Assembly: GCA_003427395.1 (NCBI GenBank) | Contig: BFEA01000005.1 | Span: forward strand, 656,625 to 720,624 | Source of the DNA: Chara braunii | Taxonomy: Eukaryota; Plantae; Charophyceae | DNA length: 64,000 nt | Direction of reading: 5' to 3' | In this document: positions 4,831 to 59,647 of the stretch, in pieces | How the letters are laid out: each line of letters starts with the position of its first letter | Numbering within the stretch: position 1 is the first letter of the stretch | Notes under the pieces: model-generated | The model's input: only the letters and a program-made list of their open reading frames with translations | Databases searched by the model: none | Told to the model about the DNA's origin: nothing | Translations under genes and position numbers: made by a program

Positions 4831-5546
4831 TTAATTCCCAGTATCCCGGTCCGTTCTTTGGCGCTTCGCGCCCCTGCCCTCCTCTGTCTTTGGTGGCGGC
4901 GCCACCCCCAGCCNNNNNNNNNNNNNNNNNNNNCCTTCATATCATGTAATGTTTCTTTTGAGAAAAAGTCCGTTGGCGTGACCCTCTCCCCAGCCGCCAT
5001 GAGGCTATGGGCTATAATAATCCAGTCATGTCTGAAAGTGTTGGCCCACACCTCGAACCAATGACTGGGTGTGGGGCCGAATACCTCCTCCCAATCATGG
5101 ACCTCCTCTGAGGCCCTGCTTGTTGATGCCTGTCCTTCCGGCCTGGGCCTTGAGACCCTATCCACCTCGTCATCGCTACTTACAATTACAATCTCCGGAA
5201 TGTCCTCCCCTGTCTCACTGTCATCTTATGTGGATCCCTTAGCGTCTTCCCGACTTCCCTGCCCAGGTTCTTCCTTGTGCTGGTCCTCTGTCCCTTTTTC
5301 TTCCCTCCTTTCCTTCCGTTCTTGCTCACTCTCATACTTTGACCAGGCTGGGAGCACATCGCCCTCTTTTGTAGGGGAGGGTCTACAGGCTCGCATCTTC
5401 CTTTTTCCCGTCCTCACAGGGGGCCGGGGTTGCGGTCCTATCACGAGCACTGGTCTGTTTCTGTTTTGCGGCCTCTCTGGTTGCTGCCATGGGTCCTCAA
5501 CATTGATGTTTGCTTGATTAATATCGTTCTCGTTGTTGGGTGCCAT
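4831..5546 (-). pseudogene. Accessory ORF at the env position downstream of pol (charged, low-complexity, with a Trp-rich C-terminal segment)
   Basis: ATG 5546 (MAPNNEND...), one in-frame TAA at 5226-5228, then ...DWEEVFGPTPSHWFEVWANTFRHDWIIIAHSLM... A small gap follows; probable stop at 4831-4833. Preceded by a pyrimidine tract plus CAG. Confidence 0.55.
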
Positions 5547-5964: not shown

Positions 5965-8900
5965 TTAGTCTTCTGCCTCCTTATCCTGGGCTTCTTGCAG
6001 CCATTGTTCCACCGGATCCCTAGTGAGAAACCTGACCAGTCGTTGCGCAGGGACTGGCCCCCTTATAGTGATCCCATCGAGGTTCTCAATCTCAAACGAG
6101 CTCACACCCAATTTTCTTGCAATACGGTAAGGTCCCTTGAATCGCCGCCCCAACTGGCCTGACCATGTAGTTTCTAGTGCCGAATTTCTGACTAGGACCA
6201 TCTCCCCGACCTGCAGAGGCTCCTTCCGGATATTCTTCAACTGGTCCCACCTAGTTTTGTCCTTCATGCGACTGTCTAGTACCTTGTGAGCTATTTCTTC
6301 CAAGGCTTCCTCGTTCCTGGCCGCTTGTTCACACCTTGCCTCAATCAATTGTTCCGTAGTCAGATGAGGGTCATCTTCCAATTTGTTCCAGGTGGGTACT
6401 AGGGCCTCTACCGGAAAGTCAATCTCCCTGCCATACCATAGCTCTGTCGGGATGCATCCCGTCGTCTTTTTTGGTGTCCTATTCTCGGCAAATACCGCGT
6501 GTCTGAGATAGTCCGGCCAGTTCCCAAGGTCATCTGCTGCCAACTTTGCAATCGTGTTCTTAAGCGTTTGGTGCCCTCGCTCGACTGGCACGTTGGCCTC
6601 ACGGTGGTATGGTTCTGTCAATTTGATCGGTACGCCAAGCCTCTTGCAGGTATTCAGGACGTCCTAGTTCACAAACTCAGTCACATTGTCGGCTATGAAT
6701 CTCCTAATGAACGGGTGCCTCAGATAAAAGTCCTCCACCTAGTCTGCAGCTGCAAACCCAGTTTTCTTCTTGAGCGCGGTTGCCTCGACAAACCCACTAA
6801 GGTTATCCCTTGCGTCAAGTATGTACCTGTACCCTTTTCTGGAAACCGACATGACTGCCAGGTGGAGATGTACCATATGCCATGGCCCCAGTACGCGGGT
6901 GGGTCTAAGTGGCTCGAAAATGCGGACCGTGCTTCGTTCCTGGCAGATTTTGCAGGTCTGGCAGTACGTGGCTACCATCGATGCCATTCCCGGCCAATAA
7001 TAGAGTGGCGTTATCTTGGCTAAGGTCCCTTTGGATGACCGATGGCCACCGGCCAATCCGTCATGCATGGCCTGAATAATGTCGAGTCGTCGCATCCTTC
7101 CACAGACTACTCTCCTGGGCGTCAGGCCTTCCTCCTTTCGGAATAGGTGCCCCTTTCTAAGCACATACCTATCCGCTTCCTCCCTAGCTTTAGGACTAAC
7201 CTCGTGGGGTTCCTTGTTTCCCACCAGTAGCAACCCAATTTCTCTGAACAAACCTTCATATGACTTGATGAGGAAGAACTGCTCTTCTTCCTGAGTACCC
7301 GTCTGATTATTATCCACCTGATAGGCCTGATAGTGCTGCATCTCCAGCTTCTGAGACTCCAGCATGCTCATAACCCTTCTCCAGCCTCCCTCAATGGCTA
7401 GTGCGATTTGTTCGTCCCGGGGCTTCACAACACTACCACAGGCGTCCTTCTCTTCCCTCCTTCCAACTCTGGTGACCGTTCCCTCCCTTAACTCGGCAAC
7501 CACTGCCAGAGGCCCTTTTTCGAGTGCTTTGATCAATAGCTCCCCAGTTGTGCAAGTGGTTCCGGCCATCTTGCTGTCTACTACCAGCGTCCCGCCCTCG
7601 TAGTCGAGGAACGCGTCGATCGGCTCTGCCTCTTCTAGCCCTTCGGGTGTGAGAGCCACCCTGCTCAGTCCGTCTGCTCGATTCCTAAGGCTGGCTATGA
7701 GCTCAATCTTATAGTCGAACTGCCAGATAAATCCTACCCATCTTCCAACAGTCGGGTCTATAGGCTTATAGTTCTTCAGGGCCCCGGCGACATTGGTTGG
7801 GTCTATCCTCAGGATAAACCTCCTCCCGAAGAGGTAAGCCTGAAAGACTTGAGGCAATGCAGTATCGCAAGTACCTCCTTCTTGAACTGAGAGTAGCGCC
7901 GCTCTACCGAATTGAGCGTCCTACTCTCAAATCTGATCGGTCGCTCTCTACCATCTTCGCCTTTTTGAATTAGCACCCCGCCGATTGCCATTGGTCCTCC
8001 ATCCGTCTCAAGGATGAAAGGTCGACCGACCTCGTCGTTGAAACATGGAGCGACAAGGGTGACTTCTTCGGATGTGAGAATATTTTTCAGGGTCTGGACG
8101 GCCGATTCCCTTTGCTCAGTCCAATCGAGTGTGCCTTCTTCACGGATCATGGCTCGAATCGGTTCCGCTATCTTTGCGAACCCTTTTATGAAGATTCTCC
8201 AAAAGCCTACCACCCCCAGGAATGCCCTGACTTCTGTTGTAGTTTGAAGGGGCATAGGCCACTGTGCTATCTTATCGGTCTTAGCCGGATCCGGCTTCCT
8301 TCCATAGGCGCCACAACGAAATCCCAAAATTGTGACTTCTGGAACTGCCAAGATACTCTTCGGGCCGCTAGCGGTTATGTTGTAATCTAGGAATCTTCGC
8401 AGCAGCTCTCTAATATCCTGCAGGTGGTCCCAAACAAACTTTCTTATCCCCGGCTGGACTTCGGTCTCATCCTTCTCTCATGCTCCTTTGACAGGGTTGT
8501 CGTCAATGTAGGGCTCACATTTGTCTGGGAACATGTCCCTGGCCACCGCGAGCATCCTCCTTTGTGCCTCTGCTACCGCATTAGTAAATCCCATAGGCGT
8601 GACCTGCATCTGCAACTATCCTACTGGCGTATGCATAGCCGTGTAGGGCCTATCTCGTGCGTCCAGCGGGAGCTGGTCGTATCCTGAGTACAGATCTATC
8701 AAGGAGTAAATACTGCGTCCGGCATGGGATTCGGCCAGGAGATCTGCCTGCGGCAACGATCCCGCATCCCGGATGGTGACAGCATTTAACTTTTGCAGGT
8801 CCTGAATCCACCTAAGTGACTTGTTGGGCTTGCGGAATACAAACCACTTGTTGGCATAAGGAGATGCGGTGGGTTCTGCCACGAAGGAGTCCATTTTTGC

Positions 8901-9320
8901 CCTAAGGAGCTCCTTCACTTCTCCTGCGATCCCAAAGTCGTAGGCCGGTCCCTTGTCATTCCAACACTCATGCTCGACCGTGTGGATCCTGACTGGTAGG
9001 ATCAACTTAGCGTCCAGGCGCCCTTTCTGATGGTCATTGAAAGTGAATGCTAGGTGAGATTCTTGGCACACTTCTTTGATTGCCTGTGTTTCTTGCTCCG
9101 TCAGAAAACCCTTTACTCCGATCTTCATGGTTTGGGCCACCTCATTCGGTATCCTATGTCCTTCTGCCACCCTCCTTTCTCTAATTACCCGAAGAACCTC
9201 CTCCTCCTTTTCCATGGCCTCCTCCTTAGTCATCGCGAGTAGGATGGAGACCGGCTTCGCCTTCTTTCCTACGGGCTTATACCTCCGAACGCTTCCTTCC
9301 CGGATCTTTCTTCTAAAAAA
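5965..9320 (-). pseudogene. pol: pol (RT, RNase H, integrase), disabled by stops and a frameshift
   Basis: RT: DLQKLNAVT, LIDLYSGYDQ, PMGFTNA, PYIDD (YIDD at 8499-8510). RNase H: FILETDGG, YSQFKKE, ADGLSR. Integrase: HDGLAGGH..CKIC, IADNVTEF, ANVPVER, FKGPY. Stops at 8616, 8478, 6739 and one more in IN; frameshift near 7850. Confidence 0.95.
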
Positions 9321-12300
9321 TGAACGGCCGGAGTTGCTTGAGGGGCTTCCACAATGCGGGGCTGAATACTAACCAACTCCCCATTTAGGCAATAGCCTTT
9401 TTGGACCCTCTCCTCAAAGCGGGCGAGGGTGGCCGAGTCAACAGCCACTTTGTGGTACCTGATTGCTTTGACAAGCTGCAGTAAGTCCGGGATTTCTAGT
9501 GTGACCTTATCCTTCTTATCCCGGATCTCCCCGTGCTTGGGCAAACTGGCTCCCAATTCCACCTCTGTTTCCTTCTCTACTACCATGACTCCCAGGCCGT
9601 CTTCGTCTGACCTACGTTTCTTCATCGGGAGTCCCATCTTGACCCATTCTTTCTTACTAAAGGCCTCTTCGATCATAATTTCCACCCTNNNNNNNNNNNN
9701 NNNNNNNNNNNNNNNNNNNNNNNNNNNNNNNNNNNNNNNNNNNNNNNNNNNNNNNNNNNNNNNNNNNNNNNNNNNNNNNNNNNNNNNNNNNNNNNNNNNN
9801 NNNNNNNNNNNNNNNNNNNNNNNNNNNNNNNNNNNNNNNNNNNNNNNNNNNNNNNNNNNNNNNNNNNNNNNNNNNNNNNNNNNNNNNNNNNNNNNNNNNN
9901 NNNNNNNNNNNNNNNNNNNNNNNNNNNNNNNNNNNNNNNNNNNNNNNNNNNNNNNNNNNNNNNNNNNNNNNNNNNNNNNNNNNGGTTCCCATAAGGCGAA
10001 GCAGCTCGCCTCGTCCTGTCACCGGGTCCTCTATGTCTACCATGTAGGCGCCGTCGTGCAGATGCATCCCGATCATTTGTACGTTCGCACACCACGGGCG
10101 CCCGAGGATCACGTCATGGTCCATTTCGTCCATGACGGTCATTCGTTGGAACGACCATATAGACTCTCTAACCCCGGCTTTAACTGCGCACTTGGTAACA
10201 TAGCCGGAAAAGGGGATTTCCCCACCTGCTCCCCGGACACTCCCCGTGACCTCCCAATTGATTGGGCACCCAGCAATTGTTGCAAAGTCCTTGCAAATGA
10301 GTGTGATTTCTGCCCTGCCATCTACCAGTGCATCCATGTGGTGGATGCCAATCTGGACTTTCAGTTTCCCTACCGGTAGCGCATGGAAACTCAGTTTCGT
10401 GCCAGGCGGTGCCCTCATGACTTCTCCGCCTTCCCGGTCTGGCAGACTTAGCCGGATGTCTGCGAAGGCCTTCTCTAGATCTTCCAGATCCCCGGGGGCC
10501 CTCTGAAGGTTTGCCACTTCCCGCGGTGGCTCCTCTTCCTTGCCTTCTTCGCGTACATCCGGTTCCTCCGCTACTTCCACCCTTTGCCTTGTTAGCAGCT
10601 GTCTTAGGCCCTTTAGTAGTCTAGGACTAACCTGCAACATGGTATGGAAGGAAACCGATACCATGGTCCCTAGCAACTGGCTAAGAGTGTGGTCTATCTC
10701 AGGATCGACAAGGATAGGGATCTGGTACCTGAATTTCTTCTTTGCGGATGTTACTTTGTCTACGGGCGCCTCCTCCCTAGGCTTGCCGTAAACTTTGTCC
10801 TGGTCCGATTCTGCTGGCGGATTCGACCCTTCCTGCACGTCTTCCATGACCGCGTCCTGAATTACCTTCTTTGTAGCACCCCGTTGTCTGGTGGTCACAT
10901 TAACCCCGTCGCGGTCATCACTCTCGGTGATGAAGTTGACCTGGTGCCCTCGCCCGGGTGCCTGTCCCCAGGTAAGTTCCTCTACTGGTTCGGCCTCAAC
11001 CGCGGCTGCATCCAGGTTGTTGAGTGCGATTACTGCTCTGCGCATCCCTCCCGGCGAGTTCCAGTTTACCCTCTCTCCTCGTGGCCCCAGGATTTCCCCG
11101 CACAAAGTTCTAAAGCACTGTTTAAGAATGATATCGTGGTTAAGCCTGGGACACATGCGGACAAAATGCCCGACTATCGTGCAGTACTTGCACTGCTCAT
11201 TGGCCGGGTCCTTTCGATTATTACCGCGGTTGGCTATCCGGGGGGGTACGATTGCCTCTTGTGGCGGGAGGGGGGGTCGTACTGCTTGCGTTTGCGAGAC
11301 TTGGGCTTGCATCACCAGTAAGGCATTCTCTACTCTCTCTATCTTGCCGTCAACCCCGTGGACCCGCTCATGCAGGCTTTCGATTCCTTTCTTCACTTTA
11401 TCTTCAACCTTGCCTGTCAAATCTATGATCTCTCCTTCTTTTAGCAGGGCCAACGAGTCAGTCACCACCATCTTCTCTGCAATATCCGTTATAGTGCTGA
11501 AATCTACGTCTCTAGTGTTCAGGAACTTTGCTGTCTGCTGGTAGGCGGACAAGATCTTATCCTTGTCAAACTCGGTGAACTGCTTTAGGAAGTACTTGCT
11601 CATTATTCGGTCCGTCACTCTGGGGATTCGTAGTGCTACGAGAGTAAACTCCCTTAGNNNNNNNNNNNNNNNNNNNNNNNNNNNNNNNNNNNNNNNNNNN
11701 NNNNNNNNNNNNNNNNNNNNNNNNNNNNNNNNNNNNNNNNNNNNNNNNNNNNNNNNNNNNNNNNNNNNNNNNNNNNNNNNNNNNNNNNNNNNNNNNNNNN
11801 NNNNNNNNNNNNNNNNNNNNNNNNNNNNNNNNNNNNNNNNNNNNNNNNNNNNNNNNNNNNNNNNNNNNNNNNNNNNNNNNNNNNNNNNNNNNNNNNNNNN
11901 NNNNNNNNNNNNNNNNNNNNNNNNNNNNNNNNNNNNNNNNNNNNNNNNNNNNNNNNNCTTTCCATGATCCGCTTGTTGCGACGATTGCCATTATGTCCCT
12001 ACCTAGGTTGAGTGACACATGCTGGCCTAGGTGCTCCATCTTTTCCTCCTCAATCCATCTTAGTAAGGCTGCTAGATTTTCATAATCGATTAGGAACTTG
12101 GTGATGTTTCCGCCATCGAAAGTCAGCTTTTTCTTGGCGTCGGCCAAGTATCCCTGGTTTTTGCTTAGAGCACGCGTGAGGGACGACACCACCTTCCTAA
12201 GCCCTCCCTCAATCATCCCGGGTCCTGTTGCGGAACTCGGACTGGCGCCTTCCTTGCTAAAATCGAGTTGCCCTTTTGGCTTTGCAATCCCTTCCGGGTC

Positions 12301-12942
12301 AAACCATCCTAGCACCCTTTCCCTCAGGCTCCAGAGTCCCTCGCATCCTCTTGCACTTACAGGCGACGCCGAGGGTCGGCTTGCTCTGCTGTCCAGTAGG
12401 GGTGGATTGACTGGTCTATCCCTATCCTCCCTAAGGAATTTTATTCCTTCTTTCCCTTTCCTTGTTGGGGTGTCCCTCGTGTCTCTGGGCCAGTCCTTCC
12501 TGTGTTGTGCATCCCCATCCTGGCTTCCTTGCCCGAGGTCCAGTTCCCCTTCTTCCCACGTCCTGTCATCAGCGACATTTTTCTCGGCATCGTTCATGAT
12601 CTCTTTCAATAGTTTTGCCCTGTATTCTGTCGTGCGTCTCTCTACTTCGGCTAGCTTTCTCCGTGCATCCGTTAGCCTAACCTTTTTCGGCTCCGTCCCC
12701 TCGGGCTGCTGACGAGCCGGACTCTCCCTGTCTCTGACTTCCTTGGTTCCCGGAGTCCCCCGTTTACTTCCCCTGCTCTTTCCTGAATCTTCCCCGGGCA
12801 CAGCGTCCTTGCTCCTCTCCCTGTTTCCTAGTGACTTTGCCGACCCCCGATCCCCTAGGTCCTGCTCTTCTTGATCTACGTCATCCTCTACGTCCTGATT
12901 TCCGTCCCTCAATTGACTTCCAGCCTCGTCTCCCGTGGCCAT
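9269..12942 (-). CDS. gag: gag-protease polyprotein ORF1 (spans two N gaps, so continuity is inferred)
   Basis: ATG 12942; gag-like LTFDGGNITKFLIDYE; zinc knuckle CKYCTIVGHFVRMC (~11151-11192); aspartic protease ALVDGRAEITL ... DVILGRPW. Confidence 0.85.
9314..9320 (-). promoter_or_regulatory. Candidate -1 ribosomal frameshift heptamer U UUU UUA
   Basis: In correct X XXY YYZ phase with ORF1 (CAT TTT TTA). It lies in the 100-nt overlap (9269-9368) with the pol frame, which is -1. Confidence 0.65.
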
Positions 12943-12960
12943 GTTTTCCTTCCTCTAGCC

Positions 12961-13000
12961 CTGTGATATGGAAGAAGGGGAAAAAATAAAATAAAATAAA
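12961..13000 (-). promoter_or_regulatory. Candidate 3' splice acceptor upstream of gag
   Basis: TTTATTTTATTTTATTTTTTCCCCTTCTTCCATATCACAG|G, 18 nt before the gag ATG. Confidence 0.6.
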
Positions 13001-13244
13001 TTGCAACCGCACATAATTCTCTTAGCCTTTAGAATTGCCTATTTTTCACCCCTTTTTGCTCTTCCCTTTGCTTATCCTAGGTATCTTGGCCGCACCTTTG
13101 GTTGCAACGGCGTCTCTTCCCCCCCCTTTTTCTGGCATGTGTTCAACCCATGGTAGACCTGGTCGCGGCCATCCAATCGGTTCTTTTATACCTATTTTTC
13201 TTTCCCTTTGGTTCTTATTTCTACCATCTTTCCCGACATCTTTC

Positions 13245-14030
13245 CTATGCTGGCTCTTCCGGTCTCTCCCTCTCATCCGATTCCTCAAATAGTCTTGCCA
13301 CCCCTGCGAGATAGTTCTCTCCCATCTCGATCTCCCTTATGATTATTGGCTCGTATTCCTCAAACGACAGACGGGGCGTTCCGAATATCAGGATCTCAAG
13401 AAGTTCCAGCAATTCCCGCGCCCGATTTCCCCAGAACGGCCCGTGCCTTACTGCCACGTCATAGAACATCCCCGTGGCCTGTGGTGAGAAGTAGCGTTCC
13501 CAGATTACGGTTGAATTCACCAGGTCCCTTGCCCGCGCGAGACTCCCAAAAACCAAATCAACCATGAACCGGGGCACCCGACAGCGCAGTCCCGACATAG
13601 GGGCCCTAAAGTCTCGCCATCCCCCTACTTCTACTCGCGTTCTTAATCCCACATTCCGTCTTCCCCTAACCTCATGGCCTATCCGGTTCAGGACCCCGAC
13701 TGCCCTCCGAAACACTGGTAACAACCCATGCCCCAAGGCCAGTCCAGTTCCCAACATTTGCCACCCGATTTCTGGGAAATATAGAGTCCCTGTCACCCTG
13801 AGGTCAGTATATAAGTCGTCTCCTGGCCCCCGATCGAATCTCATGCCACCCCATAGGCATTCGACTTGCATGAAAGCCTGATTCCGTCCTAGGGTCACAG
13901 CCCGCCATTCCGTATCTATCCCCCGGACAATGTAGCTTGCCGGGAGTGACACTTCCCATCCGCCTCCGGTTTCCATGGGCGGTTGCGGGTGCATGTCCCG
14001 CCGGTTTGTACGGACGCGTCTTGCCGCCAT
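13245..14030 (-). CDS. Accessory paralog A, unknown function (~261 aa)
   Basis: Intact ORF, ACCATGG start context; shares motifs with ORFs B-D. Confidence 0.8.
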   Translation of the reverse strand: MAARRVRTNRRDMHPQPPMETGGGWEVSLPASYIVRGIDTEWRAVTLGRNQAFMQVECLWGGMRFDRGPGDDLYTDLRVTGTLYFPEIGWQMLGTGLALGHGLLPVFRRAVGVLNRIGHEVRGRRNVGLRTRVEVGGWRDFRAPMSGLRCRVPRFMVDLVFGSLARARDLVNSTVIWERYFSPQATGMFYDVAVRHGPFWGNRARELLELLEILIFGTPRLSFEEYEPIIIREIEMGENYLAGVARLFEESDERERPEEPA

Positions 14031-14175
14031 GGTTGGCGAATATCGCCTTGCATTCACCACGCACAAAAAAAAAGGGAAAAAGGGAAAAGGAACCTCTCTT
14101 TTTAGTTTTCTTCAAGCCCCCTTATAGCCCGATCCCGCTGATCTACCTTCCCCCTTGCTTTTCTTTTCTGCCCCC

Positions 14176-14940
14176 CTACTCTTCTACCCCCTCGAACAGC
14201 CGGCGGACGTCGTCGACATACGTCAGCCCGCATCCTATCTCGCACCTAGCTATCTCCCACACGACTTCCTCGGTTACCGTCGGTATTCCAGGTCTAGTGC
14301 CCACTACGGCCTGTAGAATGTTTAGCACCTCGTACTCCTGCTCCTCATCGAACGGCCCTAGTTCCAGAAAGGCCCGGTAGTATTCTCGATATACGGTCAT
14401 GTTACTAAAACTCAACCTACCCAGGACTATTACTGCCATCTCAGCACATTCTACCCCTCCCATTCGCTCAAGCAAAAAGGGTGGCAAGACCATGCGCACA
14501 TTTTCATAAGGCAAGATACTAGCTCCTACCTCGACCACCCGGGCGGTCGCCGTCACGTCATCCCGGTCCGGGTTGGCGAACGCAAACCCTTCCCTCCAGG
14601 TCACCTGCCACGCCCCGTCAAACATCCGTACAGGGTCACCGCCATCCGCCAAGGCCACCCCGAAGGTCCGCCATCCCGCCTCCGACAAGTATAGGGACCC
14701 TGTCGCGCGCACCCGTCCTGGCAATTCTAGGTTGGTGCCCCCAAACTCACCCCTTGCGCGCCATTCTAGTTCCACCACCAGGTACACCGTGTCCTCTACC
14801 AGTTCTACCCCAACCCAGTCCATCACCGGATTATACACCCCGCNCCTGGAGGGCAGGCTAACCTCCACCCTTCTATCCAAGAAACGTGGCGGCAAGATCC
14901 CTCGCGGCCGAGTTTCCCAAAGCGTCATACGCCTAGCCAT
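14176..14940 (-). CDS. Accessory paralog B, unknown function (254 aa)
   Basis: Intact ORF; EVSLP, ATGSLYLSEAGW, LADGGDP, PPF, GPF, YVDDVRRLFE motifs shared with A/C/D. Confidence 0.8.
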   Translation of the reverse strand: MARRMTLWETRPRGILPPRFLDRRVEVSLPSRXGVYNPVMDWVGVELVEDTVYLVVELEWRARGEFGGTNLELPGRVRATGSLYLSEAGWRTFGVALADGGDPVRMFDGAWQVTWREGFAFANPDRDDVTATARVVEVGASILPYENVRMVLPPFLLERMGGVECAEMAVIVLGRLSFSNMTVYREYYRAFLELGPFDEEQEYEVLNILQAVVGTRPGIPTVTEEVVWEIARCEIGCGLTYVDDVRRLFEGVEE

Positions 14941-15166
14941 CTCTCGTTACCTGCTCCCGCTCCTCGCTCTTGATTTCTGCATGCACCACGTTAATCAAGT
15001 TCCCTTAGTTCTCGTCTTCTCCCCTTGTCCCCTAGTTACCCTAGCCTCCCCCCTCTCTATTTCGGCCCCCCCCTTCTCTTGTGTACACTACCCCTTCTTT
15101 TAATGTACAATGCCCTTTCTTTTCCCAGTCAATCCCCCCTATTCCCCTGTCTTCCCAGGTTCGTAT

Positions 15167-15918
15167 TCAAATCCATAGGACCTCAAACAGCAAGAAGACG
15201 TCCCCTACATACGAGGGCGCTGCGGCTATTTCCCGACGGAGTATCGCCTCCTCAACTTCCTCTCCTACCTCTAGTTGGTAGTCCTTAAGTTCCTTCAGGA
15301 TCTCGACCACTTCCTCAGCCTGGTCCCCGTGAAACGGCCCGAATCGCAATGACGGCTCGTAATAAGCGTCTGATAACCAGGCGAAGCCTATCTCTACCTC
15401 GTCCATGGATTCCGCTACGGCGCGGATATGTTCGTACCCTCCGAACCAGTCTGCAACAAAATGTGGCACCCTCACCTGGACTAACTGGTAGGGGAGCCTA
15501 AGGTCCTCCCAACCCCCCCATCACGACCCTGCTTCCCACTTCATCCCACCCCTCATTTGCAAAATCCTGCCCCATTTCCCAAGTTAACCGCTCGGCATCC
15601 TCTAAAATCCACATCGGGTCTCGTCCCGCCGCTAGGTGCGTGCAAAACATATACCACCCATTCTTCGAAAGGCACACCGTCCCAAGTGCTTCCACGTTCC
15701 CCTCGGCTATTTCATCCCACGCCTCATTTTCTTGAACCGGATCCCACACCCGTTCTACCCACAAAAAGGACAGTCGGTACCATCTCTACTCCCACCCAGT
15801 CGCAGGCCGCGCCGCGCCACTTGTTCCTTGTTGGCAAGACCATCTCTACCCCGCCCTCAACCCTCCTAGGTGTCCATCCTCTAAACATCCGCGCCCACAA
15901 GCTTTGCTCCCTTGCCAT
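15167..15918 (-). pseudogene. Accessory paralog C with two frameshifts
   Basis: ATG 15918 (MAREQSLW..DWVGVEM). A shift near 15780 leads to FLWVERVW..ALGTVCLSKNGW..LAAGRDP. Removing one G from the G7 run near 15515 restores GGWEDLRLPYQLVQVRVPHF..GPFHG..YVGDVFLLFE. Confidence 0.8.
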
Positions 15919-15979
15919 CCTTGATTCCCTGCACACCCCCGCGCGACCCAACCACTCCGTCCTCAGCCCCCCCTTTTCC

Positions 15980-16792
15980 CTAGAAATCCCATTCCTCGAT
16001 TTCCATCTCATCCTCCTCCTTGGAGTCATTTTCGTTCTCTTTCGGCCACAGGTCCCGTACACCCTCCAGAAAGATTTCCCCTACCGCAACATTCCTGTAA
16101 ACTATCCGCCAGTGCACGTTGCTTGGGACGAACAGGCCGTCTGTGCTGAGATGGTTTAAAATCTCGGCCAGTTCCCTTGCCCAGTTTCCCTCGAAGGGTC
16201 TCATTTCGACCGACAGCCGGAAGAAATCCTGGCGGGCTCCCTGGTGCAACCCCACTCCGGCCATGGCCCTGCATATTCGCACCAACCTACTCCGGGTTCC
16301 AAAGACGGCGTCAACCATGAAGGGCGGCATGACACACCTTAGGGCCCTGTATGGCTTCCGCACGTTTTCCCTATCCCCAAGTTCTACCCGCACATCAACC
16401 GATTCCATCGTCATCCCCACTCGTTGGCACGCAGCCCACACTACTTCCCGCTCGGCCTCCCTGAACAGTTTGTACGGAAGTTTCCCCAAGGCGAGTTCGA
16501 CAACCATCGCAGTCTCCCTCTCCTCTGACAGGTAGATCCATCCCCGGGCTTCCACGGTCCCCCGGAACTCTAAGTCAAATAGGCACAGCGTTATCCTGGT
16601 CAAGGTTACCTTAGTCCACATCGTTTCAATCCATAGGAAGGCATCACTTTCGGCCAGCATTACGGTTTGATAGGTCGGCTCCAGGTCCGTCCACGTTCCT
16701 TCCTCTGGCATTACAACTGATACCCCACTCTTCACATCTACTGGCATCTCTGGTCCATCTGAGTAGGTTGGCGACGCCAGCCACTGCCCCAT
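15980..16792 (-). CDS. Accessory paralog D, unknown function (~270 aa)
   Basis: Intact ORF from ATG 16792; AFLWIETMW, ARGWIYLSE, LALG, RVELG, PPFMVDAVFG, RPFEGNWARELAEIL, FLEGVRDLW match paralog A. Confidence 0.8.
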   Translation of the reverse strand: MGQWLASPTYSDGPEMPVDVKSGVSVVMPEEGTWTDLEPTYQTVMLAESDAFLWIETMWTKVTLTRITLCLFDLEFRGTVEARGWIYLSEERETAMVVELALGKLPYKLFREAEREVVWAACQRVGMTMESVDVRVELGDRENVRKPYRALRCVMPPFMVDAVFGTRSRLVRICRAMAGVGLHQGARQDFFRLSVEMRPFEGNWARELAEILNHLSTDGLFVPSNVHWRIVYRNVAVGEIFLEGVRDLWPKENENDSKEEDEMEIEEWDF

Positions 16793-19273
16793 CCTGCCTT
16801 CTTTATACCGGTGGTCAAGACCTGTTTCGTCCAATGAGCGCACCAATCGGCCCTCGGGTTAGGTCCACCATTATCCTAGATGAGCGTTGTTTTAGAGACC
16901 CCTCATAAAGGTCTCCCTAAAGTTCTCTGCCCGTCCTCCAAGCATATCAGCCAGCGCCACATCCCTAACCAGTCCCCCCCCCCCCAATCGATCACCAGTG
17001 GCTCGCATTCCTTCTTCTTGGTTCCACTTTCTTCCGACTCCTATCCAACCTCTTCCTCATGTTCTCTCTCTCGTGCGGACTCAGACTTGGAGGTGAGAAT
17101 AGACTTAGAAGCTCGGTCCCCGTCCAACGTTCATCCGGCAACTTTACAGAGGGAGACACAAAAGCAAAACCAGGCAAACGTCGCACACAGGTCGGTCATC
17201 TCCTCACCGACCTTTTTCCCAGAAATGGTCTCTCCACTGTTACTATAGGCAGGGTTTTCAGCCCAAACCTCCAGCACAGCTCAACCGTCGCGAGCGCGGT
17301 ACTCAGGTCTCGGCAAGGCATTGGCCCTTTCCTCCTTACCCAGAATACCCCATCCCGACTTGTCGCTTGTGTACCCACCGTTAATCTCGGGAATCACCCC
17401 ACACATCTCGGTAGGGCCATTGGAGCTAGCCGTCCAGGCATTCACTTCCATCGGTCCGATAAGGAACAACTTTTCCCAAGCCATGCTACGAGAATGCTCT
17501 TAATCGCCTCTGAGGCTCCTTCCTTGCCCCATATGCAGTGGTCCCCCTGCTGTCTGCCGACAAGCAGCCGCCCCGCCTGAAGAGGTTTCACATCCCACCT
17601 GGGCAAGGTCATCGAGCCATGCTCGGACAACTCGGGTGAGAATGCTACTAATCAGCCGACGAGACCAACCCTTGCCTGACAGTCCGGTGGCCCGACCCCC
17701 ACACACGGAACCCGGTGAACTTCAAAGAGGACGACCAGTTCGCATCCCGCACCGGCCGACGCAAACCAATCCTTTCCTTCCGAATGGCAGGACGCTCGAA
17801 ATCCCAATCATGCAATCACAAGCCCCAAGTGGGACACACATAACAAAAGTGCCTTTCCCCTGGTGCACCCAGCGCTTCCTACCCTTAGCTCACAAATTTT
17901 CTCTCAGGACAGCCTGTGCCACTCACCCGTGCTTTCCATACATAGTGCCCGGTTCCTTTTCATGAGCATCTTCAAGGGGGAGCTAGTTTTCCCTGGAGTC
18001 TAGCAACTCCGTTCATTCCCTTCATCTTCACTTGTGTGTCCGTTCATAGGGCAGGATTGTTCCTTCTCGATTACTGTTTGTGTTCATATGAGGTTCCTTC
18101 AAGCATTTAAGTGCGGTGCGCGGAGCCCACTGGGCTCCAAAGAGAAGCAGAGAAGCACCCAGGTCGGTCGGATCACTCCGCCGCGGGATTTTCATTGGAA
18201 CCCGGACTGGCCCGGAATCCCAACCGCCTGCCAGGTAACCGGAGGCCTTCTTTCACACGAAGAGGAAGGGTCAACCTGCGGCTTGCCCAAGGCTTCCCCG
18301 GCCTGACGAACATCGGTCCAAGGGAAGGAGGACTAGAGTCATCTTCAAAGAAGATGGATGAGTAAAAGTGCAAACATGCATGTTCTTCCTCCGGGCCTGG
18401 CCTTGCCATGCGCCCAGCCACCCTCAAATCTGATTCTCTCAGAGGATAGAGCACACACAAGTCCAGATTCCTTATCTTTATGTTTGTGTTCTCGGTCATG
18501 CGTCGGGCGCCCCCCTCGAGATCGTATGGGTCAATTTAACCCATACCCGGCACCTCCACCATTTTGTCGGGGCCGAACCTTGAAGGACTTTTGAGCCTTG
18601 GTCGACCCCACTGCGGGTCCCACTTGGCTCGACCCGCCCACGCTCATTCTCGAGGCACGGGTCGTTCGTCCCAGGGGCACCCCCACCTAGTGCTATGAGA
18701 TGGATGGGGTTGGGCCAATAGGGTGAGAGAGCTTGACATTGGGGATGTAGCTCAGCCCTCTAGCCGGGTGGTAGCCTCACTGGTCTAGGTCCGCAGGCGT
18801 AAGGTTTTCGATTCTCCGTTTGTCTTACCAGGCAATTGCTCCTTCCAAGACTCAGGCAGTCCAGGGAGGTTCATTGAGAGCTTTCTCTTCGTTACGGTGC
18901 GTAGGCTAAGCGTTCTCCTTAGGCCACGCACTCCTTCACTAACAACCCTAGTTTCCTATAGCATCATCGGGGCGGCTCGTCCCTCTCCCCCTAGCCCCTA
19001 TCTTTCCTCTAGTCGGCCTACGCATACATCTCCCAGGTCTCGTGACCGCCCTTAGTCCTTCCAGGCGGCCGTACCAAACTCGCGACCCAGCCACAACCAC
19101 ACATCACGGCAAAGTCAGCCTCTGACCCCATCCCCGACCCTTAGTCTTTTCAGGTCGCGCTAGTCATGCAATCGTCAAAGCCCAAAGTCCATCCCGGTCG
19201 TTCGAGATTCAACCCCCTTTCACGCGTTACGGTCCCATGTCGCACAATCCCTTCATTGCCAGATCGTCCAAGC

Positions 19274-19283
19274 CACTTACCTG
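19274..19283 (-). promoter_or_regulatory. Candidate major 5' splice donor in the element 1 leader
   Basis: Minus strand CAG|GTAAGTG, a perfect U2-type donor consensus, upstream of all ORFs. Confidence 0.5.
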
Positions 19284-19915
19284 CAACACATCCAAATAAA
19301 CATGACAATGGCATACGTCCGTCCCCGATGGGGTCAACACACCGCCCCTCATGCAAGTCCAAGTCTTCCCTTTCCTTTTTCCATGCTTTTGGGTGCTTTC
19401 CTTCCTTCCTCACAATCAAACCACACTCTTCTTACTCAGGCATGCAGTTGAGGAGGTGGTTGAGTCGACTGACCTTGTCCAAAACAACACTCCTTTTTGC
19501 TCTCACCAACGTCCTCAATANNNNNNNNNNNNNNNNNNNNNNNNNNNNNNNNNNNNNNNNNNNNNNNNNNNNNNNNNNNNNNNNNNNNNNNNNNNNNNNN
19601 NNNNNNNNNNNNNNNNNNNNNNNNNNNNNNNNNNNNNNNNNNNNNNNNNNNNNNNNNNNNNNNNNNNNNNNNNNNNNNNNNNNNNNNNNNNNNNNNNNNN
19701 NNNNNNNNNNNNNNNNNNNNNNNNNNNNNNNNNNNNNNNNNNNNNNNNNNNNNNNNNNNNNNNNNNNNNNNNNNNNNNNNNNNNNNNNNNNNNNNNNNNN
19801 NNNNNNNNNNNNNNNNNNNNNNNNNNNNNNNNNNNNNNNNNNNNNNNNNNNNNNNNNNNNNNNNNNNNNNNNNNNNNNNNNNNNNNNNNNNNNNNNNNNN
19901 NNNNNNNNNNNNNNN

Positions 19916-19997
<82 letters not shown>
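19916..19997. repeat. (GA)n microsatellite
   Basis: Read directly; adjoins a gap. Confidence 0.98.
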
Positions 19998-20049
19998 GCA
20001 AGTTTCACATCTTAATCGACCTCGATCATCGACTTATCCTAACCGGTGG

Positions 20050-20545
20050 CTGGTCTATGGTGGACGGGTGTAGGTGAAGGGGGGTTGCGGAGGTTGAAGG
20101 TGCATGGACGTAGGTGAAGGAAGGGGGTGGAGGTTGAAGGTGCATGGCTATGGTGGACGGGTGTAGGTGAAGGAGGGGGGGCGGAGGTTGAAGGTGCATG
20201 GCTATGGTGGANGGGTGTAGGGGAAGGAGGGAGGTGGAGGTTGAAGGTGCATGGCTATGGTGGATCGGTGTAGGAGGATGGAGGTTGAAGGTGCATGGCT
20301 ATGGTGGATGGGTGTATGTGAAGGAGGGAGACGGAGGTTGAAGGTACATGACTATGGTGGATCGGTGTAGGTGAAGGAGGGAGATGGAGGTTGAAGGTGC
20401 ATGGCTATGGTGGACGGGTGTAGGTGAAGGAGGGAGGTGGANGGTGTAGGTGAAGGAGGGAGATGGAGGTTGAAGGTGCATGGCTATGGTGGACGGGTGT
20501 AGGTGAAGGAGGGAGGTGGAGGTTGAGGGCGCATGGCTATGGTGG
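20050..20545. repeat. ~50-bp minisatellite
   Basis: Unit GGCTATGGTGGACGGGTGTAGGTGAAGGAGGGAGATGGAGGTTGAAGGTGCAT, about 10 degenerate copies. Confidence 0.95.
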
Positions 20546-20574
20546 GGGGGGGTAGGTGGAGGAGGAGGATGGAG

Positions 20575-23500
20575 GAACTGGCCCAGCCTTTGGTTGACCC
20601 GATCAAACTTCATGCAATACAGTCTTTCTCCCACCCTTCCCCCAGATGCAACCCCACAATTTGCTTTCAATCAGACAAAGAAGCTGAAACTGACATTATA
20701 CATGCGTTCCTTTACTTAGTCTGGTTATGTCATGAAAAGAAAGCAAAAATCATAGGGACAGGCATGCATACACCAATCAAACTACAGGGGGATATGCAAA
20801 CATGGGCGTAGTGGGTTATACAGATAGAGATGGATTACCTGATGGTTCCCTGCCTCCAGAACCTCGCCTAGGTTCCGGCAGAGCTCCCGCAATCGGTGGG
20901 CTGACTCCCCACAGTGTCTTGTTGCAGTCCTACGGGTTGCAATCCCGCCTGCCGCCTTCCTCTCAGAACTGGATTAGACTTAAGAGTAAGAAAGGCAGAA
21001 GATAGGGGCTTCAGACTCTCGAGATACAAGAAGGGACAACTCAACTCTCAGGAGAGGGCCTTGATACCTTCATTCGCCTGAGGGTCTCGCAATGGTACCC
21101 AATGTAACAGCTTGGTCAATCCAAAGTCAAACTGCTGAACTCAACCCTCCTGTCAAACCCTTAATTCGCAGTAATAGCCCCCCTTCTCAAGCCAAATCGC
21201 ATCACATAGCGGTCTGTAGCAGTTGGCAATAGCCGGCAGTTGTGCGCAGCAGTATGTGGCAATCAACAGCAGGCGGCAGTAGCAGTTTGCGTGCAGTAAG
21301 CAGCTGTGGTTTGTGCACGGCCAACAGCAGCCCACAGGAGTAGTCCACGCACATTCAATCAACAGCAGCAGTCGTGCATAGTAAAAAACAGCAGCAACTG
21401 TGAAAAGTAAAAAACAGCAGCAGTCGTGCATAGTCACAAACAGCCGCAGCCGTTCATGCACAGCCCACAGGAACAGCAGCCAATCGCAGCAGTCAGCCGC
21501 AATATGCAGCAGCTGCTTTGTCTCTCACCAGCTGCTCACCCACACATATCGACTACACAGTCCTCAGTCGCCACAGGCCTGCGGCCTAAAAGGCACAGTC
21601 GACAGACGCTGCAGCAGTTCGCGACAGCCAGCCCTAGCAGCCACCAGCAGTAGTCAGCAGCAGCAGCCAACCGTAGTACGCAGCAGCAGCCAACCGTAGT
21701 ACGCAGCCGGCAGCAGCAGCCAACTGTAGTACGCAGCAGCAGCCAACCGTAGTACGCAGCAGCAGCCAACCGTAGTACGCAGCCGACAGCAGCAGCCCCC
21801 TCAGTCAATAGTTCAACCCCACAATCCCTTCCGCCCTGGAACTTCCAACTTTCTAGCAGAACTTCGGACTGCAGATCCTCAATGAGGCCTGATACTCAAG
21901 TATTACCTTGGTTACCGAAATACTCCAACACATCTGCTCAGAAAGCAGGAGCTCAGAGACACAGTACTAATGGCGACTCAAGTCCGAACTCAAGTGTCGA
22001 TGAACACATGCATTGGCTACCACCGAAAATATGAACGGAGCCCTTTTCTCTTCCCGGCACCCTGTGCCCAAATTGAGATTCCACAGCTACTCTACCAGGC
22101 AAAACCTCCCACTACGACCTCGATCAGCATCCTCCTGAGTGCATGCAAGCGTCGTTCATACAGACTATCACGATAACCAGGTATATACACTCACCCTCCA
22201 AATCATTCCTCCTATCTTCACTGCTTTGTCTCTTCCTCGTGCATGTGGGTCGCTGCGCACACCTACTCCTCCTCCACTTCTTGTAATCTGCCGTGTACCC
22301 GGTCGCAAAAGAAGGCTAGATTCAGTCATGACGGAAGGGGGGGGGGTCTGGTAGAAACACGGCTACGAGGGTCGAGGCAACGACCCCCAAGTGCACGACT
22401 ATGAACACGACGATGAGCTGAGACGCCCAGCTACTCGCCAAAAGGTGCGAATTGAGAATGAACCTTCCACTAGAACATGAGCCAGATACACCCTCGGCAT
22501 AGGCTGCGCAGGTAAGCTTCCTACTCCTTGGCCCGCTCCCTGCTACTTCCGACAATAGGATGAGCAACACCAAATGAACTCTCCGGCCGAACCTGGTCAG
22601 GTGTCGTGCACGTAAGCGCAGAGCCGCACGTGGCTCCGGCCGACAAGGTAAGTCCTTCGCTTTTAAACGAGGGAAGATACACCGGCACCCTCGCTCATAG
22701 TGAGAACTGGCTCGCATGGACAACAGAAACGACCGCCGTGGAAAACAAGGAGATTGACCTCCATGACAACGATGGGTGGCCTACCAAAGCACAAAAAATG
22801 AGAAGGAATCCCCCACGAGAACATAGGGCGCACACTGCTTCTCCAACCCCGCGTGCAAAGAGAGAACTAGTCATTGTTTCCATCGTCAAAGCGAGCAAGA
22901 TCGGAATGAATCTTTCGCAAGAACCCAGGTAAGTTCATTCCTTTTTCCACATATCTCTTCTTCCTCACGCAAGCTCTAATCTATATGGCGCCAAACCCAC
23001 TGTGTCGTTGCCAAATCTAACCGCACAATCTAACTCGTCCTGCTCCAAAGCCTCGAAAAGGCTTTCGAACGATCAGAATCGGTCTAGAAACGACCGAATC
23101 ATTCCACTCCCCCCCCTGGCTTTCCTCCTCACCGCCATGCTCAGCGCAGCCCACTTCCCCCGTAGCTCCTTTTTTTCTAGCCCTTTGCTAAATTCGACTT
23201 CAGAATCAGATTCGCCCGCCCTTGAAACCTCAACCTAACACTTTCTCCTACCCGATTTCAACAAGAATTGTAGCATCGTTCTCCCACCATAGCCACTCCC
23301 TCGTTTTTCACCCTCGAGTGCACCCGGTGTGATCTCCGTCCGGGTTCATCCGTTGCCTTGGTTGCCTCCGCTCCCCACTACTCTAGCGCTCATCTCCTAC
23401 AGCGCTGTCACTTCGCCCGCTATCGCTCGGTGCTGCCCGGCCAGCCCCGCTAGTATTCTGCACGCACCCCACACAACCTCCCGTACAGATTCCCTCCATC

Positions 23501-31418: not shown

Positions 31419-33324
31419 ATTATATTTCGACAGGTGGCGATTCTGGAAAATCCACTCTGTATAGAGGAGATTCTGTCAGGGTCTACCTTTCTTTTGATAC
31501 TTGCTTAGAGGTAGACTTAGGCTTAGTTAGATTGAATGATTTTGAGCAAGATTGTGATATGGAGATTATTCGCCATAGACTTATAAATTTAGCTTCATGT
31601 CTTGTGTTACAGGTCGTCTTGATCGATTGATTCAAAATTTGGGCTAGATTTAGCTTAATACTACAAGGATCATCTTCTGTTATCACTGATAACAGGTTGG
31701 TTGTCGATTCGTCGATTTACGATTTAACTCCAATCCACTCCCGCCACTCAACCTAAAGGCTTTAGCGTTGTGATTTAAACTCTTTTGTTGTGTTTTCGCC
31801 CGGACTTTATTTGAATGGCCATTTAAAGAAAAGTACTGAGTATTTTATATTAAGAGTTGCACAAAGAGTGGGGCTTGTATGGCTAAAAGCAAGGGGTGTG
31901 AGTGCAGAGAATGGTTGAAGTTGACCCCGTGTAGTGCATGGACTTTTGGTTGAATCTTTGATGTGATTGCAGGTATGTTTGGTGATTCGGACTTTGGATT
32001 TGACTGTCTGCGCTCATATACATATATATGGCTGCGAAGAGTCCGACTGTGATTGTGAGAAGTGATCGTCACATATTTATAACCCTTTATATATATGTAA
32101 ATACATATACCTTGAGTGTTTCGGGCGACCTACTGTGACCGCGGGTAAAGGTTAAACAGATTATGTTTTTGAGAGAAAAGGGACTTCCCCTTTTTAGCCT
32201 TTACTTTTTAGAATTTCTATGGTTGGACGTTGTAGTCCGTGGCAGCTGTCAATGTCAAACCCCTTGATTTCTCTCCGGGCCCTAGGTGAAGGAGCTGGTC
32301 TCCAAGGCGATAAGAGACGATTGCCACCACAGGTATGAACCTGTGTACCACCCACTCTTCGCAGGGTGCAGAAGAGGGTGTGGTTCTCAACCGCACTTGG
32401 CTCTTGTCCAGCATCGAGAGATCAATCCCTCAAGGCGCGTGTCAGCCGACACTTGAGTGTCGATTGTGACCCTCAAAATTAACGAGGACGGCATGAGTAT
32501 GGGTATTACATAGTACGCCATCATTGCGACTGCTTGCGTTTGCTTGCATTGCGAGTCGATATGAGTTAGCCCTGCGTCCGCGCGATTTTTATACTAAGTC
32601 TCGCGCGCGTCGCCTATCCGAATTTCACGTCGGAGAGTTATGGGATGACTACTAAGGGACTAGGAGTGTTGTTGCGTTGTTTGTTCAGTGTCGTTCTGTA
32701 TATGTATATGTATGTGTGTGTGTGTGTGCGTGCTTTTATTTTTATGTTCTTTATAGTGGTGTGCGTGTGGCGTGTGGCATGCGCCCTAGTCGACCGGCAA
32801 CGAGTTGCGCTTGGGACCTCAGCCCCCCAAGATGCCGGTTCGCGCGCGGGTTCGATAGAGGCGTAATACCGCGCGTACCCCCTATGCTACAGCGAACGAG
32901 AAACGCCCTCGGTTGGTCCACCTCTGCGATTGCAACTGATAAGCTTTCGTACTGTGGACTAGTAGCTCGGCGGGGATACACCCACCGAAGGGAGGTGACA
33001 ACTCCCGTAAGGTGGAGGTAAGTCGTGCCTTGCGTAGGCCCTATCCTGTCGTAGGGGCTCGCGAGAGGTATGGCTGGCGCACTCGGTCGGAGCGGCTTGC
33101 GGAAGCTCCATGTATATTCGCAACGAAGGAACAGACCAACTCTTGCGTGACGCGGCCGGGAGGGTCCCGCGCTGCCTTGTGCGGTGCCGGACCGATGCGC
33201 TCGACACCGCTGGTCACTGGGCGAGCCGACCCACGATTACCCACTCCGCTCTCGCGGTCCCCTCCCTCTCGCCGGTGGTCCCCTGTCCCCATACCACAAC
33301 CCATATCTCCCCCCCCCTCCCACC

Positions 33325-33783
33325 ATGTCTACTTCTCTCTCTCCACCACCCACGGACAGGGCTACAACTGAGGAGCTCGTCGCGGCGCCGTCCACCTCTC
33401 AGGCATCCACCCACCCGACGGCCCAGGAACAACACGTTGTGGACCCCACGGACCTCCGCGCTATTCTTGCGTCTCTCCTCGCACCTCTGCAAGCGCGACT
33501 TGATGCGCTTGCACCCTTGGAGAGGCAAGTCAATGCGCTCGCCCTTGAAGTTCACCACCTCAAGGGCTCTCCTCATCGCTCTCCCCACCGCTCTCAGACC
33601 CCATTGCCTACCAGCTCGGAGTTCGGCTCTCCACAACTCCGGCGACGGAGACGTGGTTCGTTCTCAAAACGAAGTGTGGTCAGACCCATCGCGTTCCCTT
33701 CATTGGAACCACGGGCGACACCCCTCCTGACCTACCTCCCTAGGACCCTCATCCCTCAGGGTTGCACCCCAACGTCGCCTTGA
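33325..33783 (+). pseudogene. gag: gag N-terminal remnant of chromovirus element 2 (gag core and protease apparently deleted)
   Basis: CACCATG start; coiled-coil-like LRAILASLLAPLQARLDALAPLERQVNALALEV; joins directly to the pre-RT region. Confidence 0.55.
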
Positions 33784-34099
33784 CTTCCCCTCGTCAGTTT
33801 GCTCACTTCATACGACAGGAGGACGTTACGTTCTACTCAGTGAACGTCATGGATCTTCTTCGCTATGATCCACTCTGAGCCGAGGTTGAGCTCATCTCTC
33901 TGGAGCCCGATCCCCCTGGCCCTTCCTCCATCTTCGTGGCTCCCATCTCTACGTCCACCCGTTAGCCTGCGGATACCCCCTCCACGTCCCAGACCCCTGC
34001 TCCGTCGACTGTCGAGTCCACACATGCGTCTCGTGCCGATGCAGACATTGAGGAACTCACACGGTTCACAACAGACTTAGAGTCCGTCGTTCGCTACCT

Positions 34100-37000: not shown

Positions 37001-37319
37001 CGTATCTCACCGAGTTACCGACGACACCCCTCCACGCATCGAGTACCTTGTGCGTTGGAAGGGCTATCCTGATGAGGAGGCTACTTGGGAGCCCCTCGAG
37101 CACCTGGAGCACGCTCGAATGTTGGTGCGTGCATATGATCGTGCTCGTCATGCTGAGACATCTACTCCTACTCAGCCGACTGACCATCCTCCTCCTCCTA
37201 CGACTGAAGAGATTGCTGAGGACGAGCCTGCTCCCTCTGAGGCCGTTCTTCAGCAGCAGATGGGCGCCTCTGCGCGTCCACAACGCACTCGTCGACGTTC
37301 TCGACGTCTTGACGATTGA
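34100..37319 (+). pseudogene. pol: Chromovirus Ty3/Gypsy pol (RT, RNase H, integrase, chromodomain) with frameshifts and stops (element 2)
   Basis: SPWGAPVLFARK, KIDLRSGYHQI, MPFGLTNAPATF, VYLDD, TDASDFAIG, VADALSR, ISMDFI, ISDCDPRF, PQTDGQTE; chromodomain EYLVRWKGYPDEEATWEPLEHL (~36980-37140). Confidence 0.97.
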
Positions 37320-39627: not shown

Positions 39628-39707
39628 GGGGATCGCCATACAGAGAGCAGATGCTCAAGAAGCACAACTATGCATGGTACATCTCATAGCACGAGTGTAC
39701 CATGGCG

Positions 39708-40498: not shown

Positions 40499-40501
40499 AT
40501 T

Positions 40502-59213: not shown

Positions 59214-59282
<69 letters not shown>

Positions 59283-59644: not shown

Positions 59645-59647
59645 ATT

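Follow-up and report, generated by a model that had tools for sequence, protein, structure and literature searches.

Why would a retrotransposon carry four related genes of its own ahead of gag? The question is raised by a 64,000-nt stretch of the Chara braunii genome (contig BFEA01000005.1 of assembly GCA_003427395.1, positions 656,625 to 720,624; hereafter, the window), on whose minus strand four head-to-tail open reading frames (ORFs), termed D, C, B, and A, lie between the primer-binding-site (PBS) motif and gag of a Ty3/gypsy element. An earlier note, made from the sequence of the window, had described these ORFs as an old, amplified, and diversified accessory family, perhaps of anti-silencing or counter-defence factors or of RNA-binding regulators. 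The architecture is nearly certain: C. braunii harbors a Ty3/gypsy family in which four old paralogues, in the order D-C-B-A, lie between the PBS and gag. As to function, we favor a reading for which the case is evenly balanced, namely, that the four paralogues make up an accessory cassette like those of complex retroviruses, each being a subfunctionalised adaptor that would bind host expression or silencing factors.

A to D are true paralogues. The ORFs, their coordinates, their shared orientation with gag-pol, and the spacers between them (61, 226, 145, and 302 nt for D-C, C-B, B-A, and A-gag, with the gag ATG at 12942) are exactly as first reported, on the minus strand. Protein identity among the four is approximately 22 to 33%, and the similarity runs from end to end, as had been claimed: local BLOSUM62 scores are 153 (A-B), 195 (A-D), and 130 (B-D), the C-terminal piece of C scores 142, 114, and 102 against A, B, and D, respectively, and all of these pairs reach z values of 16 to 32, with 0 of 500 shuffles attaining the observed score. 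For the short N-terminal piece of C, similarity is clear with B alone (z of 14, versus 1.9 against A and 2.8 against D). DNA similarity among the ORFs, already described as not obvious, amounts to nothing beyond chance-level words in BLASTN at word size 7 (best cross-ORF E of 0.023), and a six-frame profile search found no fifth paralogue in the window, leader included. In the window copy, C is spread over three frames by the two frameshifts previously recognized, B contains one ambiguous base (14844), and pol carries 5 stops and at least one frame change relative to a close copy. The contrast between three intact cassette ORFs and a decayed pol, pointed out earlier, is no sign of selection in this copy: two lesions in the ~3.1-kb cassette versus about six in gag-pol represent a similar density. 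As such, the window copy is dead and by itself uninformative on selection, for which the evidence is drawn from other copies.

In three word-seeded searches, 52 distinct proteins were retrieved, each of them named as a hypothetical protein of C. braunii, and a full HMMER pass over 1.84 billion representatives returned 64 matches, 43 of them new. Among 20 new matches that were looked up, 19 derive from C. braunii, and the other is an assembly protein (P0066) that is C-like and groups with C on a long branch (support of 88/87) in a tree including distant homologues. No host gene or known domain matched A to D in the searches run, and scans of metagenome and viral contigs with the D alignment found no relative. 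The cassette is not peculiar to this copy but family-wide in C. braunii. Because many gene models fuse neighboring ORFs, gene order can be read on other scaffolds: among 95 proteins examined (with paralogue matches below 40% identity dropped), 55 gene models hold at least two of D, C, B, A, and gag, and 53 of these preserve the order D-C-B-A-gag, which places the homologues upstream of gag. In the remaining two, gag comes first, and each seems to be a model that runs across two elements. C is continuous in gene models P0017, P0018, P0020, and P0021, and DNA contigs disagree with the window at both of its frameshift sites. The domain also occurs, at 25 to 31% identity, in seven distant C. braunii proteins (P0085 to P0087, P0090, P0091, P0093, and P0095), in P0093 ahead of weakly gag-like sequence, so the protein family extends to other element families. 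One further Chara gene model, P0015 (376 aa), combines the C-terminal portion of D with a protein-kinase domain, which is probably an annotation fusion and possibly a case of co-option.

In DNA contigs, the depth of the cassette (110 to 1043) falls in the same range as that of gag (100 to 1875), with the leader at 6,763 to 21,275 (values that do not represent copy numbers). Between 17020 and 18537, the leader exceeds the cassette and gag in depth by 10 to 20 times; along with the LTR (long terminal repeat), it may be shared by numerous non-autonomous derivatives or sister families in which the cassette is lacking or has diverged.

Each of the four paralogues forms a single clade with support of 100/99 or better (43-row tree), indicating that the duplications predate the subfamilies, between which orthologues are 50 to 77% identical (RNase H, mostly 76 to 85%). 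B and C join at 96/93 in this tree, a grouping that loses resolution once distant homologues are added. Selection was tested on proteins by comparing the fraction of conservative substitutions with that of a neutral codon model (kappa of 4 assumed; expected fraction, 0.25 to 0.30). Over pairs that are non-independent, this fraction is 0.40 to 0.51 for D (11 pairs), 0.39 to 0.55 for C (10 pairs), and 0.33 to 0.55 for A (6 pairs), with controls at 0.48 to 0.62 (RNase H) and 0.40 to 0.45 (gag-protease). The frame of B is open between distant subfamilies where 3 to 6 stops are expected, and its conservation is 0.72 to 0.83 at sites shared with another paralogue versus 0.39 to 0.56 elsewhere (6 of 6 pairs, p of 5e-5 or less). 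These comparisons support purifying selection on the shared core of the paralogues; together with four clades that predate the subfamilies, a fixed order, and the lack of any host gene match in the searches, they bear out the description of an old, amplified, and diversified accessory family.

The element itself is a gypsy by its domain order: Pfam matches on the minus strand run from zf-CCHC and protease (both weak) through RVT_1 and RT_RNaseH to Integrase_H2C2, i.e., gag, protease (PR), reverse transcriptase (RT), RNase H (RH), and integrase (IN), and Retrotrans_gag is matched at an E of 0.0019 in the related gene model P0022. We read the CA and TGG motifs (see the table) as an LTR end plus PBS. 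The PBS motif is presumably complementary to the 3′ end of tRNA-Ala, and the window holds no tRNA gene for comparison. DNA depth is highest at 18538 to 18790, by the LTR end and PBS, and two DNA runs contain loose ends at 18586 (~20 letters in common, ending in CA, after which the reads diverge). Since the PBS lies upstream of D, the cassette is inside the retrotranscribed region. No copy of 16800 to 19520 that could serve as a partner 3′ LTR occurs elsewhere in the window; the element runs into an N gap on its 5′ side and may continue past position 1 on its 3′ side.

Features of the Chara braunii element (window positions; all on the minus strand)
Feature	Position	Strand	Remarks
Probable 3′ part of 5′ LTR	18565..19520	-	Ends in CA at 18566-18565; upstream part cut by N gap
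Primer-binding-site motif	18546..18561	-	Starts with TGG, 3 nt past LTR end
Leader	16793..18545	-	1.75 kb; 39 ATGs; 108-codon ORF; donor-like sites at 17927, 17340, 17208
Paralogue D	15980..16792	-	270 aa; acidic; acidic-aromatic C-terminal tail ending in WDF; CAG/G sites 1 and 30 nt before ATG
Paralogue C	15167..15918	-	~250 aa; two frameshifts here, continuous elsewhere; TGCAG/G 11 nt before ATG
Paralogue B	14176..14940	-	254 aa; diverges most quickly between subfamilies; TGCAG 37 nt before ATG
Paralogue A	13245..14030	-	261 aa; arginine-rich N-terminal tail; pyrimidine tract and AG 17 nt before ATG
A-gag spacer	12943..13244	-	Best acceptor-like site of element, 12961 (rank 1 of 1152 AG sites)
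gag (zinc knuckle) and aspartic protease	9984..12942	-	N gap inside; weak zf-CCHC and gag-asp_proteas matches
pol: RT, RNase H, integrase	5965..9688	-	RVT_1, RT_RNaseH, Integrase_H2C2; decayed here
3′ extra ORF, sense	4834..5546	-	Family not recognized; unrelated to A to D; acceptor-like site 5570 (rank 2 of 1152)

Neither a chromodomain (the last 100 aa of integrase gave just a weak SH3_Tf2-1 match) nor a second RNase H of the Tat/Ogre/Retand type was found, the latter at E values up to 1 in the ORF between RNase H and the integrase zinc finger (~240 nt between ORFs being unscanned); an extra RNase H is likewise absent from the precomputed Pfam domains of 37 long gene models. Other gene models contain pieces of the leader ahead of D or B (56 to 94% identity), and the 3′ ORF reappears in other copies at 24 to 31% identity (86% in a close copy). 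The product of this 3′ ORF is acidic, of low complexity, and fast evolving between subfamilies, with no Pfam match to its open part. Just past the PBS lie a small inverted repeat (18524 to 18546), possibly a packaging or dimerisation hairpin, and the 108-codon leader ORF (18499 to 18173, minus strand), which has no Pfam match. A 59-nt tandem repeat downstream of the 3′ ORF (2314 to 2667) resembles the repeat arrays of large plant gypsy elements and is a candidate part of this one.

How might the cassette be expressed? Under the adaptor reading, a donor in the leader or LTR would be joined to an acceptor before each ORF, and the unspliced RNA would serve as the genome. Such alternative splicing is, on the signals in the sequence, somewhat probable for the element as a whole: gag and the 3′ ORF are likely cases, and A to D plausible ones. 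Besides the three donor-like sites of the leader, there are two in the LTR (19281 and 18829), and the two best acceptor-like sites among 1152 AGs precede the ATGs of gag and the 3′ ORF, by 19 and 24 nt, respectively. The acceptor-like site of A ranks within the top 30, D has CAG/G sites, and TGCAG occurs before B and C but lacks a pyrimidine tract. Gene models of other copies (predictor output, not RNA) enter at or just before the start codon in 16 of 18 cases for D, 5 of 9 for C, 9 of 17 for B, 10 of 15 for A, and 25 of 43 for gag. Given the 39 ATGs of the leader, scanning on full-length RNA cannot deliver D, let alone gag. TATA- and CCAAT-like words before D and gag, noted by eye, leave internal promoters as an alternative to splicing.

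As for what the proteins do, a predicted structure of A offers the most direct view. From a 41-row alignment, AlphaFold2 returned a confident model (predicted local distance difference test [pLDDT] of 81.6 and predicted template-modeling score [pTM] of 0.76; range of pLDDT over five models, 75 to 82) with two lobes: an alpha/beta N-lobe (residues ~19 to 152), consisting of a hairpin, three long strands, two helices, and two strands, and a C-lobe of five helices (154 to 254). D, folded from 17 rows, reached a pLDDT of 41.9, and this low-confidence model and its structure search were disregarded. The earlier note did not recognize the domain, and neither do the libraries: there is no Pfam family for A, B, D, 17 alignment members, or the distant homologues, no PDB match by sequence profile better than an E of 0.37 (none at E up to 10 with a 41-row profile including tail columns), no Foldseek match to the A model below an E of 0.001 (best E of 0.11 in PDB and 0.037 in the viral library BFVD), and no usable ESM Atlas match with A as the query. 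The best VIA-align scores are a Z of 5.7 for the ring protein FliF (48,161 chains) and of 5.9 for chimallin (996 chains), nearly all on the N-lobe and below the tool's stated noise level of 8, the C-lobe being barely tested; in the whole-model search, these N-lobe neighbors range over Z of 5.5 to 5.9, also within the noise range, with root-mean-square deviations (rmsd) of 4.2 to 4.5 over 90 to 113 aligned residues. The predicted fold thus appears to match none in the libraries searched, which does not in itself prove it new.

The properties of the proteins narrow the possibilities. Columns conserved across groups are chiefly G, P, W, F, and L (aromatic or aliphatic), and the best-kept charged residues, E57 (33 of 38), R149 (33 of 38), and E206 (31 of 38), are not invariant. 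Ten proteins of 226 to 280 aa contain no transmembrane segment (maximum 19-residue hydropathy, 0.76 to 1.34). B, C, and D are acidic (isoelectric point [pI] of 4.5 to 4.9), and A has a pI of 6.1 to 7.9; all 9 full-length A N-termini have an arginine-rich tail (of low confidence in the model), and in 11 of 14 D-type proteins inspected, the C terminus is an acidic run followed by WDF. An enzyme was set aside for the lack of any invariant polar or catalytic residue, and a zinc-binding protein for the lack of a conserved Cys or His column. An Argonaute-hook suppressor was rejected as well (the five GW/WG pairs of A lie in a G-rich strand, several within predicted secondary structure), as were likenesses to levivirus coat and RNase H (rmsd above 11 or no match). 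Taken together, these features suggest a scaffold for binding, tagged differently in each paralogue, and not an enzyme, fusogen, or zinc-finger factor. At least eight gene models leave D near position 16337 (minus strand; residue 152), close to the predicted lobe boundary, where a conserved donor could give an N-lobe-only or N-lobe-Gag product, or which may be a habit of the predictor.

By analogy with retroviral accessory proteins, it is conceivable, at slightly under even likelihood, that A to D are non-enzymatic, protein-binding adaptors that turn the host expression and silencing machinery to the element's benefit. Different partners would be bound by the one shared scaffold, by way of its variable surface and of tails that differ between paralogues (the arginine-rich N-tail on A and the acidic-aromatic WDF tail on D). 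B, whose non-core sites change fastest, would be the likeliest of the four to contact a host factor that is itself evolving. Overall, the earlier interpretation is partly supported: anti-silencing or counter-defence, as argued from analogy, is plausible, and a general RNA-binding role is weakened for the acidic B, C, and D, only A having an arginine-rich tail and a higher pI.

Several points weigh against the adaptor reading. The adaptor function is reached by elimination and analogy. The acceptor score, a simple ad hoc one, sets the six ORF starts apart when taken together (P of 0.0002), but the four paralogues alone are at chance (P of 0.39); TGCAG precedes both B and C versus 2.5% of 244 other ATGs, but this word was picked after looking. 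Poly(A) RNA reads over 11960 to 19520 number 8, 1803, and 8 in three runs (6 to 13% of each run read), none of which contains a splice joint, so the check by RNA sequencing suggested at the outset gave no support; the 1803-read set lies on both strands and follows the DNA depth profile, and no RNA runs are listed as containing the stretch. Between distant subfamilies, B is neutral-like (0.24 to 0.29 in 5 of 6 pairs), as is the N terminus of gag (0.28 to 0.33). The pairs used for the substitution and B-site comparisons each share one reference copy, and annotated gene models are biased to open frames, such that the protein tests support, and do not replace, a comparison of nonsynonymous and synonymous substitution rates (dN/dS).

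Two other explanations are improbable, to a like degree. The first holds that the paralogues are four subunits of one hetero-oligomer (a ring, a lattice, or an extra layer of the virus-like particle) and are kept together in fixed order for that reason. All four are indeed retained at the same length with a nearly gap-free alignment, and the top N-lobe neighbors, chimallin (rmsd of 4.2 over 98 aligned residues) and FliF (rmsd of 4.5 over 90), self-assemble; but their sub-noise Z values tie with those of OsmC, GNAT, and gelsolin-like folds, and distant E- and F-type gene models have one domain copy each before a gag-like part (though models often skip ORFs). The second is self-regulation of the element RNA, in which host defence is not the target: A would be a Rev-like exporter or protector of the unspliced genome, D a transactivator, and B and C cofactors. 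An element that splices out its cassette to express gag would need unspliced RNA to be kept and exported, the tail of A is present throughout, and the conserved tail of D recalls the acidic activation domain of the rv-cyclin of WDSV (PMC3185748). Against this stand the acidity of B, C, and D, the absence of any match to a nucleic-acid-binding fold in the searches, and the fact that splicing itself is only predicted.

Very unlikely is a bolder version of the oligomer, in which a retrotransposon of the plant lineage would have turned into an agent resembling a complex retrovirus, at least five accessory genes would be spliced, and the four paralogues would co-assemble into a shell or lattice shielding RNA and reverse transcription from host silencing; if true, it would be a eukaryotic retroelement counterpart of the phage nucleus, built from a fold not yet in PDB. 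A shade less likely still is cell-to-cell movement, in which A to D would act like env, FAST, or movement proteins and take the element through plasmodesmata toward the germ line: they lie 5′ of gag, as do the small ORFs (sORFs) of the MDG1 group, one of which is a FAST-like infectivity factor (PMC11952523), but A to D lack a transmembrane segment, are 250 to 270 aa in length versus 70 to 110 aa for the sORFs, and match no viral movement or fusion protein in BFVD. Least credible, and already largely refuted, is a captured or passenger sequence from which the element gains nothing, or a distinct element inserted into the leader: it would suit the absence of visible expression in the RNA runs and a leader deep enough that many related elements may lack the cassette or have a diverged one, but there is no host homologue (52 of 52 matches and 19 of 20 further ones looked up are gene models of C. 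braunii, in most cases linked to gag or pol), the order is kept, frames stay open, and the core is conserved across subfamilies only 50 to 75% identical, and the cassette is as deep in DNA as gag.

Elsewhere in the window are a second, unrelated gypsy element on the plus strand (33000 to 37500; RT, RNase H, and integrase, ~27 to 35% identical to the first RT), a ~1-kb dispersed repeat in three copies 75 to 94% alike (39700 to 40670, 50770 to 51550, and 58890 to 59815), and a 42-nt tandem array at 56.7 to 57.4 kb.

Extra ORFs are common in plant LTR retrotransposons and mostly unexplained, and reviews describe them as heterogeneous, independently acquired, one-off captures (PMC6317226, PMC7264820). 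In the Chara element, a single accessory gene has given rise to four, which held their order and stayed under selection while a large family of elements radiated among the algal relatives of land plants, with 3.5 kb of every genome copy spent on them; this argues that accessory functions can matter to a retrotransposon as much as to a complex retrovirus. The cassette also provides a new protein family whose structure is well predicted and in which comparisons across the four paralogues, several subfamilies, and distant single-domain relatives can be used to find host restriction or silencing targets. Moreover, Chara "hypothetical genes" by the dozen turn out to be fragments of this element.

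Among known systems, duplicated accessory genes exist as vpr and vpx of HIV-2/SIV, and the VANC proteins of Arabidopsis VANDAL DNA transposons are sequence-specific, DNA-binding anti-silencing factors that demethylate the element. VANC resembles A to D, by description only, as a transposon-encoded accessory protein diversifying between element families, and differs in being a DNA-binding protein of a DNA transposon. A literature search, with the Chara genome paper, its supplements, Repbase, and most subscription papers outside its scope, found no paper on the Chara cassette or on a four-paralogue array. The earlier note, which compared the element with the single extra ORF of Ogre/Tat, was incomplete: Ogre has one or two extra ORFs (PMC6431247), the Drosophila MDG1 group (412, Mdg1, Stalker2, and Blood) has two sORFs before gag (PMC11952523), and the fish retrovirus WDSV has three accessory genes, of which orf c lies 5′ of gag (PMC3185748). 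Its statement that no LTR element with a four-member paralogue array was known to it stands to the extent that none of these is described there as such an array.

Among the closest known systems are the plant non-chromovirus OTA elements (Ogre, Tat, Retand, and Athila), which are likewise large Ty3/gypsy elements with a long internal region, 5′ and 3′ extra ORFs of at least 250 codons, and downstream tandem repeats; the Chara element differs in its four paralogues of one family in fixed order, and 0 of 17 Chara alignment members match the OTA domains PF10536, PF04195, and PF03078 at E up to 5. The MDG1 group shares the presence of more than one sense accessory ORF under selection between LTR and gag; its ORFs, of ~110 and 70 aa, are borne on unspliced RNA, and one encodes a FAST-like membrane protein (PMC11952523), whereas the Chara element has four predicted soluble paralogues of 250 to 270 aa with acceptor-like sites. 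Complex retroviruses express accessory genes from spliced subgenomic RNAs, encode protein-binding adaptors, and have an acidic C-terminal activation domain on orf a, and a duplication giving orf a and orf b in WDSV/WEHV is named in a reference title (PMC3185748). The Chara element has acceptor-like sites, but no RNA junction in three low-coverage runs, and A to D have no sequence or fold match; WDSV/WEHV and HIV-2/SIV are enveloped vertebrate viruses with two paralogues, 3′ of env or mid-genome (rv-cyclin having a cyclin fold), in contrast to the algal retrotransposon with its four paralogues ahead of gag. Bdelloid Vesta/Juno and planarian Burro are also gypsy-like and enlarged by accessory ORFs, with ORF3s from spliced messages, but their extras are recognizable captured domains such as GDSL, DEDDy, env, BIR, and MATH (PMC5408684, PMC6431247). 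Extra ORFs 5′ of gag in gypsy elements and duplicated retroviral accessory genes are known; what the Chara element adds is a four-member paralogue array and a protein family without a recognized fold.

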